Shown here piece by piece: positions 24,827-28,902 of a stretch of 28,902 nucleotides of DNA. The position numbers were made by a program, and so were the translations under genes. Numbering within the stretch: the stretch's first letter is position 1; each line of letters opens with the position of its first letter. Under the pieces are notes generated by a model. The model did not search any database, had not been told where the DNA came from, and saw only the letters and a list, made by a program, of their open reading frames with translations. Source of the stretch: a virus; UHGV virus genome UHGV-1442816. One strand, written 5' to 3'.

Positions 24827-24966
24827 ACGTCCTCCTTTTCCTGCGGTAGTGGTAAAACTCCTGTTGGTGTTCTTTCACACCGGAGACACCATCGATTCCA
24901 GTAAGGTTGATTTGGTCTGAAGCGGTTATCTTCTTTGCATTCACCGCACCGATCACATCGCATCAT
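24793..24966 (-). CDS. ninD: NinD (zinc-ribbon-like)
   Basis: 57 aa from the Met whose ATG overlaps the ninB stop: [34 protein letters not shown]... Overlaps ninE by 34 nt as I recall for lambda ninD/ninE. Confidence 0.6.
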
Positions 24967-25403
24967 GCTGCCCGGTCTCCCCATCGCGCTTTCCATTCGA
25001 GAGCCAGTCGCGCTTCGTCTGACCACTTAACGCCACGCTCTGTACCGAATGCCTGTATAAGCTCTAATAGCTCCGCAAATTCGCTTACACGCATCCTGCT
25101 GGTTGACTGGCCTATTACCACAAAGCCATTCCCGGCAAGGTTAGGAACAACATCCTGCTGCTTTAATGCTGCGGTAAACACACACTTCCAGCTTTCTGCA
25201 TCCAGCCAGCGACCATGCCATTCAACCTGACGAGAGACGTCACCAAGGCAAGCCCAAAGCTTTCGGTTCTGGTCTAAGCTGCGGTTGCGTTCCTGAATGG
25301 TTACTACGATTGGTTTGGTTGGGTCTGGAAGAATTTGCTGTATCGCGTGAATAGCGTTTTGTTGATGAATGGGGCTTCTTAGTTCAAACGTTAGCTTCCT
25401 CAT
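24963..25403 (-). CDS. ninB: NinB (Orf-family recombination mediator)
   Basis: 146-aa translation is near-identical to lambda NinB by recollection (...[56 protein letters not shown]...). Confidence 0.9.
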
Positions 25404-26187: not shown

Positions 26188-26263
26188 GATTTACTCTCCC
26201 CCAAATAAAAAGGCCTGCGATTACCAGCAGGCCTGTTACAAGCTCAGTGATGTAGATGGTCAT
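26180..26263 (-). CDS. 27-aa hydrophobic peptide, translationally coupled to helicase
   Basis: Not in ORF track. ATG overlaps helicase stop (TGATG) with AAGGAGG 7 nt upstream; product MTIYITELVTGLLVIAGLFIWGRVNRG is one transmembrane helix; its stop overlaps the start of the 68-aa gene. Confidence 0.35.
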   Translation of the reverse strand: MTIYITELVTGLLVIAGLFIWGRVNRG

Positions 26264-27714
26264 CAGAATCCTCCTTTCTTCTTGGACTGCGGTTCCTCGC
26301 GTTCACGTCGGCGCATTTCAGCAGACTGTTGGTCTGTGTCATAAATAGCGCCATTTGCCTGAATGCAATACACCGTGCCGGTATTGCCATGACGATTGAG
26401 ACGAAGGATTAGTTCGGTTTCACCAGGTGGAACACTGTCATCAAAAGCGCCTTCACGATGGATCCCAACCCAATAATCGCAATCCTGTTCAATCTGCCCT
26501 GTATCGCGCGAGTCACTTGGTAATGGGCGTTTATTGGTTCGGCTTTCCAATGCGCGGTTAAGCTGTGTCAGAAGCACAACAACGCAATCAAGCTCTTTGG
26601 CAAGGTTCTTCAATCCTTTGGTGATCATGCCGTAAGCAAGGTCGTTGCGATCGGCCTTCTCAGCAGTCATTAGTGTCAGGTAATCGACCAGAATCATGCC
26701 AACGCATCCTTTTTCTCGCTTGATTCGACGGCTTTCGCTGACGATTTGAGCCAGAGATAATCCCGGCGTGTCGTCGATGTAAAGCAGGTCGATTTCACTC
26801 AAGCGATTGGCTGTTTCGATCGCCCTGTTGAAGTCACCATCGTAATCACCCTGATAGCCGTCATCAGCGTCATTTGTCGCCGGAAGGTAAAAAATATTCG
26901 GGTTAACACCTGACTTCTGTCCTACCAGTTTTTCCAGTATCTGGTCACCTGGCATTTCAAGGCTGAACATCAGAGCGGGCTTTTTCTCATGCACCGCACA
27001 GTTGATTGCCATCTGGCTGTATAGCGTCGTTTTCCCCATCTTAGGGCGAGCGCCAATGACGAACAGAGAGCCTTTCACCAGACCTTTCGGTGACAGCATC
27101 CTGTCCAGCGATGGGATCCCTGTGCTCATTCCCCGTTGTTCGCCTGATGGGTCAAATCGTTTCTCAAGGTCGCTAACCCAGTCTTCCATAACCTCACCAA
27201 ATGAGCGAAGGCCGCGACGCGATCCGGTTTTTGCATGGTCTGTCAGTTGCGTGAAAATCGCCTGAATAGCTTCGTACTTCTGCGTCGCAGTCATTCCGTT
27301 GCGGGAATAGAGCAATTCCGTCGCTTCAGTCATGCGGTTGATGGCGTAGCGTTCCATTGCGGTTTCGCGAACCTGCATTGCATAGGCAACGATGTTTGCG
27401 GCGCTTGGCGTGTTCTTTGCGATCTCAGTGATATAAGCAAAACCGCCAACAGACGCCGTTAACGATTTACGCTCCAGTTCATCGAAAAGCGTCAGGCCAT
27501 CTACTGGCTTTTGCTCCCGGTGCATTCTGGTTATTTCTTCGAAAATGATTTTGTGTGGTCGGCTGTAAAATGAATCAGGCTTCAGCATCGCCAGAACTTT
27601 CTGGACGCGCTCACTGCTGTCATCATCCAGAAGCAATCCACCAATCACCGCCTGCTCTGCCTCGATGCTATGGGGCGGCGCATAAAAATTATCGGTCATC
27701 GTGTTCACCCTCAC
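26263..27714 (-). CDS. Replicative DNA helicase, DnaB family (P22 gp12-like)
   Basis: 483-aa ORF with N-terminal AEQAVIGGLLLDDD (DnaB N-domain-like) and Walker A GARPKMGKTT. Confidence 0.85.
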   Translation of the reverse strand: MRVNTMTDNFYAPPHSIEAEQAVIGGLLLDDDSSERVQKVLAMLKPDSFYSRPHKIIFEEITRMHREQKPVDGLTLFDELERKSLTASVGGFAYITEIAKNTPSAANIVAYAMQVRETAMERYAINRMTEATELLYSRNGMTATQKYEAIQAIFTQLTDHAKTGSRRGLRSFGEVMEDWVSDLEKRFDPSGEQRGMSTGIPSLDRMLSPKGLVKGSLFVIGARPKMGKTTLYSQMAINCAVHEKKPALMFSLEMPGDQILEKLVGQKSGVNPNIFYLPATNDADDGYQGDYDGDFNRAIETANRLSEIDLLYIDDTPGLSLAQIVSESRRIKREKGCVGMILVDYLTLMTAEKADRNDLAYGMITKGLKNLAKELDCVVVLLTQLNRALESRTNKRPLPSDSRDTGQIEQDCDYWVGIHREGAFDDSVPPGETELILRLNRHGNTGTVYCIQANGAIYDTDQQSAEMRRREREEPQSKKKGGF

Positions 27715-28579
27715 GAACTTTCAGGTAGGTATTATCGTTAAGCAGGAAATCAAATCCCTTTTTGTGCCAGACGGTTCCGCGTTGATGGTTTTGGCGCTCT
27801 TCGAACATCCATCGGCAATTTTCGCCTACGTAGCTCAAATAATTTCTCCAGTCCTGCATCGTGAACCCATGCCCGTCAAGCTGGCGGGTTATCACTCCGG
27901 CTTTGCGCCAGAACGTTCGGATCTGGTTTTTACGCTTGTCATTCAGTGCGCGGATTTTTGGCGCTTCAGGAAGGATTTCGTGGTAAGCATCGACAACATC
28001 CTGACAGCTAACGGAAGGTTTTTTCTTGTCAGACTTTTTGTCTGCTGCGGTACTCTCTAATACGTCAGTATTAGAGATATTATTTATATTATTGTTTATG
28101 GACAACCGTTGGACAACCGTTGGACAATCTCCGCTGAGAGCCGCGCCATTACTGGTGTTTGCGTTGGACAACCGTTGGACAACCGTTGGACAATTTTTTG
28201 CCTGAAAATCGTCATATTTAACGATTGTAAACAGGCTAAATTTCTTCCCCATCGAGCAAATATTAAGCATCCCTTTCGACTCAAAAGTCCGTAATAAGCT
28301 CCGAACTTTGTTGTCGGGGATGAATGTTTCTCTGACCAGCGACGGGCGTCCAGTTATCATCTGACCGCGATCAACAGTTATCGGCCCGATATCCGTATTG
28401 ACGACAGTAGATTCGTGATTAGCCTTGAGGATTAAGTGAAGCCAAAGATGTACTGCCTGAGAGTCCTTATAGAGCCTGCTGTCCATAAACTGGCGGTGTA
28501 TAGAGACATACCCCATACTGGATGCCTCCTGATGTTGTACAGGGTTATGCCTGTAATCAGCTAACTTAACGACGCCCAT
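27689..28579 (-). CDS. Replication initiator, O-like, with origin iterons inside the coding sequence
   Basis: 296-aa ORF directly upstream of the helicase gene; mid-gene iteron clusters encode the repeated peptide CPTVVQRLS. Confidence 0.75.
   Translation of the reverse strand: MGVVKLADYRHNPVQHQEASSMGYVSIHRQFMDSRLYKDSQAVHLWLHLILKANHESTVVNTDIGPITVDRGQMITGRPSLVRETFIPDNKVRSLLRTFESKGMLNICSMGKKFSLFTIVKYDDFQAKNCPTVVQRLSNANTSNGAALSGDCPTVVQRLSINNNINNISNTDVLESTAADKKSDKKKPSVSCQDVVDAYHEILPEAPKIRALNDKRKNQIRTFWRKAGVITRQLDGHGFTMQDWRNYLSYVGENCRWMFEERQNHQRGTVWHKKGFDFLLNDNTYLKVREGEHDDR
28099..28195. repeat. Replication origin iterons: two clusters of TGGACAACCGT repeats
   Basis: TGGACAACCGT at 28099, 28110, 28165 and 28176, each pair followed by a partial copy (TGGACAAT); 35-bp spacer; AT-rich tracts on both sides (28040..28098 and 28191..28245). 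Confidence 0.7.
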
Positions 28580-28727
28580 GTTTCACTCCTGCTTTGGCTA
28601 GTCTGTAAACACCAACAAGGCGCTCTGCGAACGCCCTGTTATTTGCTGCGGCTACCACTAATCCCTCAGGTGAATCAGGGTGTCGAATCTCTTCTTTTTC
28701 CTGGTATTTCTTACGACGTTTTGTCAT
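28569..28727 (-). CDS. Small basic protein between cII and O, unknown function
   Basis: Not in ORF track. ATG at 28727 preceded by AGGAG 5 nt upstream; product MTKRRKKYQEKEEIRHPDSPEGLVVAAANNRAFAERLVGVYRLAKAGVKHGRR (52 aa); stop overlaps the O start. Confidence 0.4.
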
Positions 28728-28736
28728 AATGACTCC

Positions 28737-28815
28737 TGTGGATTGATCCAGTAATGACCTCAGAATTGCATATCAATTTGCTTAAAATCCTCGGTGGCGG
28801 CCGGGGATTTTTTCT
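28737..28815 (+). ncRNA. oop-like antisense RNA overlapping the cII 3' end (putative)
   Basis: Plus-strand hairpin AAAATCCTCGG-TGGCGGC-CCGGGGATTTT followed by TTCTTTGT at 28784..28820 lies antisense to the cII 3' end, as for lambda oop. A possible -10 CATAAT at 28725..28730 would give a ~77-nt transcript. Confidence 0.4.
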
Positions 28816-28902
28816 TTGTGATTTCATCAAGCGCATACTTAAAAGCCCTGCTAATCGGACTGATGTCTGATGCCATTCCTAAAGCACACAAGACCGAAGC
28901 AA
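28760..28902 (-). CDS. cII: CII-like transcriptional activator, C-terminal 47 codons (5' partial)
   Basis: Minus-strand ORF entering from beyond the window end and stopping at TGA 28762..28760; C-terminus ...ITKKKSPAATEDFKQIDMQF resembles lambda CII ...NKKRPAATERSEQIQMEF. Confidence 0.65.
   Translation of the reverse strand, partial: ASVLCALGMASDISPISRAFKYALDEITKKKSPAATEDFKQIDMQF

Follow-up and report, generated by a model that had tools for sequence, protein, structure and literature searches.

A 28,902-nucleotide stretch of the virus genome UHGV-1442816, hereafter the window, carries two clusters of short direct repeats in the middle of a phage replication initiator gene, and we asked whether these repeats mark the site from which the phage begins to copy its DNA. 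The repeats lie in what is, in lambdoid phages, the early-right replication region, and the carrier is a prophage or phage of the Enterobacteriaceae. From the anatomy of the segment, its conservation, the co-inheritance of the repeats with one domain of the initiator and the covariation of an adjacent palindrome, we conclude that it is very probably the theta replication origin of an HK022/Sf6/L-type lambdoid module, located in the part of its own initiator gene that encodes a flexible linker. The feature as such is already known, because it has been annotated or published for near-identical and related phages; the repeats are a putative origin already marked in Sf6, HK620, VT2-Sakai and L, and finding them here is correct and ordinary.

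Direct repeats within the initiator gene

On the plus strand, exact copies of TGGACAACCGT start at 28099, 28110, 28165 and 28176; the rest of the window has none (4 copies against 0.46 expected; a count of 4 was reached in 0 of 100 shuffles). Tandem Repeats Finder reported two period-11 arrays of 2.6 and 2.9 copies with matches of 100%. Both arrays terminate in the partial unit TGGACAAT (plus strand), and the core TGTCCAAC occurs five times in the window, each time inside the arrays (0.79 expected). A preliminary description of this DNA had proposed two clusters, each with two full copies and one partial copy, and both the exact search and Tandem Repeats Finder confirmed this arrangement; the gap between the clusters, given there as 35 bp, is 36 nt by our count (28129-28164).

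Read on the coding strand, the unit is the 11-bp TTGTCCAACGG, with three units per array. Repeat scans and comparison with homologues placed array 1, the first in gene order, at 28161-28193 (minus strand), where it reads TTGTCCAACGG TTGTCCAACGG TTGTCCAACGC, the third unit matching TTGTCCAACGG at 10 of 11 positions. Array 2, placed in the same way at 28095-28127 (minus strand), reads TTGTCCAACGG TTGTCCAACGG TTGTCCATAAA. The intervening spacer (28128-28160, minus strand) has a guanine-cytosine (GC) content of 0.58 and is conserved in length but not in sequence. Array, spacer and array thus occupy 33 + 33 + 33 nt, and the array starts are 66 nt apart, or 6 x 11. All four full units of the window copy are identical, whereas Sf6 has two single-base variants. 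As previously suggested, the repeats lie mid-gene in the initiator and are translated as CPTVVQRLS, a peptide that is present twice in the translated open reading frame (ORF). Each 11-bp unit is, however, translated in three different frames, and selection on the protein or peptide therefore cannot yield the periodicity of the DNA; with three 11-bp units an array is 33 bp long, which maintains the reading frame.

The same site carries annotations in related phages. The rep_origin feature of the Sf6 GenBank record corresponds exactly to window positions 28099-28194 (96 bp) and is described as 'putative; repeat region reminiscent of the phage lambda origin; similar to phage HK620'. The HK620 record has a rep_origin at the homologous site, and the VT2-Sakai record lists there an 'ori iteron 1' and an 'ori iteron 2' of 30 bp each, labelled as O-protein binding sites. 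In phage L, six 11-bp TGTCCAACGGA repeats in gene 18 were put forward in 2020 as the likely origin and were set against the ~20-bp iterons of lambda and P22 (PMC8022706). Genetic work cited in that paper indicates that the P22 replication region can be replaced by the whole L region only, not by individual genes (PMC8022706).

The gene that contains the whole putative origin (27689-28579, minus strand) was assigned from the ORF list, its PHROG match and nucleotide identity as a 296-amino acid initiator of the HK022/Sf6/L 'O-like' type. Its product matches phrog_345, 'replication initiation O-like', over the full length (E = 3.5e-85), and the gene is ~99% identical in nucleotide sequence to those of IME10, HK106, mEp234, HK75 and Sf6 (gene 43). 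Protein identity is 98-99% to Sf6 and HK75, and 65% to HK022 and HK620. No Pfam or NCBIfam family, Phage_rep_O included, scored over threshold, and sequence searches of the PDB with the initiator protein and with an N-domain profile returned nothing significant. The BLASTP comparison with lambda O was not significant (E = 4.1); BLASTP did align the N-terminal domain (amino acids 1-128; 28196-28579, minus strand) with that of SPP1 G38P (28% identity over 111 amino acids; E = 8e-13), with no similarity to G38P beyond this domain. Pfam Phage_rep_org_N appeared only below threshold, in 2 of 9 relatives (E = 0.039). The name 'O-like' in the preliminary description thus holds for position and role, but homology to lambda O does not (no Phage_rep_O match and the BLASTP value above); judged by sequence, the kinship of the N-terminal domain lies with SPP1 G38P/oriL, a detail new to this analysis.

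An earlier full-length AlphaFold model built from a shallow alignment gave a poor N-terminal domain (predicted local distance difference test score, pLDDT, 52.7), and this domain was remodelled alone from 45 diverse sequences. The resulting model (pLDDT 81.5; predicted template-modelling score 0.70) has a helix-helix-beta-hairpin arrangement with winged-helix topology. Its top Foldseek matches were all winged-helix DNA binders (TubR, CodY, CRP/Vfr, MarR and AspA), though weak ones (E ≥ 7e-3), and BLASTP, AlphaFold and Foldseek together suggest a winged-helix origin-binding domain related to that of G38P. The linker encoded by the origin (residues 122-188) scored pLDDT < 50 in the full-length model and is predicted to be disordered. 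Beyond it, the C-terminal domain (about amino acids 186-296; 27689-28024, minus strand) was modelled confidently (pLDDT 75-88 over residues 190-290). The C-terminal 136 amino acids are weakly similar to the C-terminal part of P22 gp18 (24% identity; E = 0.002), and the domain is presumed to recruit the phage helicase.

Conservation of the arrays and co-inheritance with the N-terminal domain

To compare the locus more widely, we assembled 41 homologous genes from phage records and 33 bacterial genome loci, with protein identities to the window copy of 36% to 100%. In 39 of the 41, CCA is found at all six positions of two arrays of three 11-bp units, the array starts are 66 bp apart, and the arrays stand at an identical offset from a conserved KYDD[FY]Q motif at the end of the N-terminal domain. 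Within this fixed frame the unit itself varies: it is TTGTCCAACGG in the window and Sf6, ATGTCCAACGG in L and ST64T, ATTACCAGCAA in HK022, HK620 and VT2-Sakai, AATGCCAACAA in Klebsiella, Raoultella and Yersinia, ATGTCCAGCCA in CobraSix and Enterobacter, and AAATCCAAGGA in Ewingella and Biostraticola. The peptides encoded by the repeats are unrelated between subtypes (CPTVVQRLS, VPADYQQITT, VPTECQQSA, NPKEIQGKS). The two exceptions, L032 (a Leclercia metagenome-assembled genome) and L033 (Silvania hatchlandensis), have three units per array with a period of 12 bp. Their repeats, ATTACCAACCAA ATTACCAGGAGG ATTACCAAGCC, lie at gene positions of about 420-520 with array starts 68 bp apart, and are in frame, being translated as NYQ or DYQ.

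Divergence of the repeats tracks divergence of the N-terminal domain (Mantel r = 0.66, p = 0.0002; partial r = 0.66 when the C-terminal domain is controlled for) and does not track the C-terminal domain (partial r = -0.11), which is swapped independently of the N-terminal domain among relatives. The comparison of HK620 with the window illustrates this: the two have a C-domain identity of 0.98 and identical palindromes, with an N-domain identity of 0.50 and a repeat mismatch of 48%. The suggestion that this is an ori-lambda-like layout with 11-bp units and a distinct specificity fits these comparisons, in that the unit sequence changes with the N-terminal domain.

Among close relatives of the window copy (72 distinct sequences, about 99% identity), the CCAAC cores had no variable site and the AT-rich stretch had 0 of 21, the palindrome had 1 of 24, and the spacer, with 14 of 36 sites variable, was the most polymorphic segment. 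The preliminary description named absence of the repeats in functional close relatives as an observation that would refute an origin; no relative lacked repeats altogether. What does vary is the copy number of the 66-bp module: the peptide occurs once in proteins of 274 amino acids, twice in those of 296 and three times in those of 318, and at one locus, L123 (1501-2457), the additional 66 bp were seen in the DNA. That natural variants have one to three arrays at a constant 66-bp phasing is, as far as these sequences indicate, a further new detail of this analysis.

Several side observations concern these variants. Initiators differing by exactly 22 amino acids (66 bp) are found among proteins P0001-P0022, P0032, P0037 and P0095. 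Forms with a single array are widespread among the chromosomes of E. coli and Shigella, and a Salmonella subtype, of 277 amino acids, likewise has one array. Protein P0041 (292 amino acids, from a Logan assembly) has an alternative frame between the arrays, IVQRLSNGCPTQTPVMARLSAEIVQRLS, implying small deletions in both arrays that jointly restore the frame; this may be an artefact of assembly, or the repeats may really have slipped. Initiator genes of this enterobacterial type were also found in a contig titled Chryseobacterium sp. 18061 (L015, Bacteroidota; 86% identity) and in a 501-bp contig of Catenulispora yoronensis (L043, Actinomycetota; 55% over a C-terminal fragment), and these assemblies are more likely to be contaminated or mislabelled than to represent true hosts. 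Of 5426 complete E. coli genomes, at least 144 contain the replication module; several Shiga-toxin phages, VT2-Sakai and Stx2 phage 86 among them, have variants of it with different unit sequences.

The AT-rich stretch, the palindrome and rival explanations

Directly downstream of array 2 in the gene direction, GC content falls to its minimum (0.175 at 28060-28099). AT-rich DNA had been proposed on both flanks of the repeats; it is pronounced on this side only, and the other flank is mildly AT-rich (GC 0.275-0.35). The GC profile and homologues delimit a 21-bp AT-rich stretch, TAAACAATAATATAAATAATA on the coding strand (28078-28098), which is the presumed DNA-unwinding element. In every homologue an AT-rich run lies between array 2 and a 24-bp palindrome, and across homologues the segment that begins 10-11 nt inside array 2 and runs up to the palindrome measures 32-38 nt, with a GC content of 0.18-0.34.

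The palindrome, which the preliminary description did not contain, is perfect in the window (28054-28077): TCTCTAATAC-TGAC-GTATTAGAGA, with 10-nt arms (28054-28063 and 28068-28077) and a 4-nt center. It follows the AT-rich run in every homologue, and lies outside the annotated origin features of Sf6, HK620 and VT2-Sakai. Over 21 distinct homologous versions, the nine inner pairs were 100% Watson-Crick, every pair had changed on both sides, and no G-U pair occurred. In this alignment 91% of cells were paired, versus 35-48% with slid partners, and the observed values were reached in 0 of 500 shuffles. Folded as single-stranded DNA, the hairpin has an energy of -7.5 kcal/mol (z = -5.0), with 3 G-C pairs only in its stem. 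The Watson-Crick double changes alter the encoded peptide, and because the pattern is strictly Watson-Crick and the peptide changes with it, the palindrome is best understood at the level of DNA. This points to a selected DNA element, held inside coding sequence by compensatory changes in more than 12 sequence versions, which is likewise a new detail of this analysis.

The sequence of the palindrome tracks the adjacent C-terminal domain (partial r = 0.52), not the N-terminal domain (partial r = 0.08). The idea that the helicase reads the palindrome sequence specifically was dropped (partial r = 0.07 with the C-terminal domain controlled), and correlations with the N-terminal domain, the C-terminal domain and the helicase gave no evidence that any particular protein reads it.

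By analogy with lambda O at ori-lambda and SPP1 G38P at oriL, we infer how binding, melting and helicase loading could proceed at this putative origin. The N-terminal winged-helix domain would bind the 11-bp direct repeats, three per array, each unit consisting of four variable bases, the invariant CCA and R-C. The 66 bp between array starts are six unit periods, and hence all six sites lie in one 11-bp register. Initiator oligomerized over both arrays would bend or wrap the DNA, and the resulting stress on the adjacent 21-bp AT-rich element would melt it. The C-terminal domain would then recruit the DnaB-type helicase that the phage itself encodes directly downstream, with no loader of the lambda P type, and the palindrome may stabilize the opening or mark the loading site. 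A stronger version, which we hold to be possible but rather doubtful, is that the palindrome is a required, structure-specific part of the origin, a hairpin or cruciform that stabilizes opening or positions the helicase; the class would then be an enterobacterial branch of SPP1 G38P/oriL, with its lambda layout due to convergence, and not a variant of ori-lambda.

Some points weigh against reading the segment as an origin of this kind. Existing annotations of the origin type are all 'putative' or 'likely', and a literature search found no footprinting or origin-cloning study for it. The fold matches of the N-terminal domain are generic and weak (E ≥ 7e-3; template-modelling score, TM, about 0.46). 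The co-inheritance of repeats with the N-terminal domain, and of the palindrome with the C-terminal domain, could be due to adjacency alone, with recombination breakpoints in the AT-rich stretch. Finally, one-array forms of 274 amino acids are common in chromosomes (two of them on 26 and 33 contigs), which means either that one array suffices or that those prophages are replication-defective.

Four other explanations were considered alongside the origin. The repeats could be sites to which the initiator binds for another end (autoregulation, titration or handcuffing, or fork arrest), with the true origin elsewhere. There is a precedent in SPP1, where the second G38P-bound site, oriR, has been proposed to stall forks and not to fire (PMC6316719), and the window is part of a phage genome, with a second site possible outside it. 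Yet the AT-rich element and the palindrome are conserved beside the arrays in every homologue, the core has no further copy within the 28.9 kb, and the layout is that of ori-lambda and SPP1 oriL, both proven intragenic origins; we regard such a role apart from initiation as improbable. A repeat that matters only in the protein, with the CPTVVQRLS duplicate serving as a linker motif and the DNA periodicity as its by-product, is less probable again. It would agree with the duplication of the peptide in all relatives, and the fixed 22-codon spacing could reflect a required linker length, but the peptides are wholly different between subtypes while the 11-bp period, the CCA phasing and the 66-bp spacing are constant. 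Moreover, the 11-bp unit spans three frames, so that no repeat arises inside the peptide itself, disorder is predicted for the linker, and the adjoining palindrome is kept by double changes that alter the peptide.

The plus, or antisense, strand could also carry the relevant signals, with the arrays as weak sigma-70 promoters and the palindrome with its T-rich run as an intrinsic terminator. A consensus scan indeed found that each array (28099-28128 and 28165-28194, plus strand) resembles a weak sigma-70 pattern, TGGACA-18 nt-GACAAT, at 9 of 12 positions, and a terminator-like hairpin with a T-rich tail is present at 28054-28077 (plus strand). However, subtypes whose units differ, such as HK620 with ATTACCAGCAA, do not preserve the promoter-like hexamers, for which reason the resemblance is probably incidental, and the number of promoter-like sites (4 against 2.0 expected) is not significant. 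The stem has only the three G-C pairs, the lack of G-U at nine inner positions in 21 variants argues for DNA rather than RNA, and an Rfam scan of 27000-28902 produced no credible match. We consider antisense signals highly unlikely, and give just as little credence to sites for a host factor such as DnaA in place of the phage initiator. By our own comparison TTGTCCA resembles part of the DnaA box TTATCCACA at about 6-7 of 9 positions, but a scan for TTWTNCACA found no match near the origin, and the unit sequences covary with the phage N-terminal domain inside one host range. An origin bound by the phage's own initiator is thus the explanation we favor.

The replication module and known systems

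The initiator gene overlaps at its end a gene for a DnaB-type replicative helicase (26263-27714, minus strand; assigned from Pfam and PHROG), without a lambda P-type loader gene between them. The helicase ORF matches Pfam DnaB_C (E = 2.7e-60) and DnaB (E = 8.6e-32), as well as phrog_19. It is followed by a nin region, with NinB at 24963-25403. At the other side the window terminates in a cII-like gene, and directly ahead of the initiator gene are an oop promoter sequence and an oop terminator. This oop-type antisense RNA unit (28722-28818, plus strand) includes a conserved lambdoid oop promoter or 5' sequence, ACTGGATCAATCCACAGGAGT, at 28732-28752 (minus strand), and a strong terminator-like hairpin with a T run at 28784-28811 (plus strand) that overlaps the 3' end of the cII-like ORF; no Rfam model matched the unit. 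Between the oop region and the initiator, overlapping the initiator start, is a 53-amino acid ORF (28566-28727, minus strand; phrog_1331, unknown function). At the equivalent position Sf6 has gene 42, annotated as a homologue of HK97 gp53, and P22 orf48 and HK022 Orf48 are 48-amino acid ORFs; the 'tail protein' label that some RefSeq records give this ORF looks like an annotation error. Positions 1-25000 of the window are mosaic, with ~61% matching Citrobacter phage Omnitron at 96% identity (portal, terminase and baseplate genes).

As a discovery the origin carries little weight; its value is in locating the putative origin of a replication module common among lambdoid prophages. A natural specificity series is formed by at least five unit types, each with its own N-terminal domain and some with a common C-terminal domain and helicase, and it makes a clean system in which to ask how short direct repeats are recognized by a winged-helix initiator. 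The covarying palindrome adds a testable element.

Among known systems, TubR bound to the tubC centromere offers a working comparison. TubR, which has a winged-helix fold and coats groups of repeats of about 12 bp arranged head to tail, was the top structural match of the N-domain model, albeit a weak one (E = 7e-3; TM 0.46; 10% identity). Its role is plasmid segregation and not replication, and we draw an analogy only, claiming no homology.

Ori-lambda resembles the window in its layout. In both, the origin lies within the initiator gene, between the parts encoding the N- and C-terminal domains, the order in the direction of transcription is repeats, AT-rich stretch and palindrome, and the repeats move with the N-terminal domain in mosaic relatives. 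The lambda palindrome, with 12-nt arms, is at the equivalent place to the right of the AT-rich region. The components differ, however. Lambda has four ~19-bp units with internal dyad symmetry, whereas the window has six 11-bp direct repeats in two arrays; the Phage_rep_O homology of the lambda O N-terminal domain does not extend to the window initiator; and lambda P captures the host DnaB, whereas the window module encodes its own DnaB-type helicase and has no loader of the P type. Lambda and P22 both show 20-nt units at 20-24 nt spacings, and P22 gene 18 was rejected as a close comparator, being of the lambda-like type with ~20-bp dyad-symmetric repeats.

SPP1 is related to the window through the homologous N-terminal DNA-binding domain of G38P. 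Its oriL lies in gene 38 directly after the part encoding this domain, as the window arrays do, and consists of a period-11 tandem array of 4.6 copies (Tandem Repeats Finder) followed by AT-rich DNA. A review of SPP1 reports that G38P binds the oriL repeats and that theta replication from oriL proceeds in vitro (PMC6316719); of the indirect evidence that the N-terminal domain binds the 11-bp units, this is the strongest. In SPP1, too, a DnaB-family helicase is encoded downstream (PMC6316719). On the other hand, SPP1 has a single array of ~4.6 units and the window two phased arrays, and a palindrome search of SPP1 gene 38 found none. The C-terminal parts of the two initiators are unrelated, as are the hosts, and a separate loader gene, G39P, lies between the initiator and helicase genes of SPP1, whereas in the window these two genes overlap.

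The closest systems are the HK022/HK620/VT2-Sakai, Sf6 and L/ST64T modules, which have in common with the window the gene family, the intragenic site and the layout of arrays, AT-rich stretch and palindrome. The window initiator belongs to their family (phrog_345; identity to Sf6 gp43 and HK022 O), its two arrays of three 11-bp units lie in the linker-coding part at the annotated origin site of these relatives, and the DnaB-type gene follows immediately downstream without a P-type loader. The initiators of these modules other than that of Sf6 have 63-83% protein identity to the window initiator. The window unit TTGTCCAACGG is the Sf6 unit and is one base off the L/ST64T units, and between the Sf6/HK022/L modules and the window there is no difference of substance. 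Here the Sf6/HK75-type replication module is set in another phage background, whose structural genes resemble those of Citrobacter phage Omnitron.

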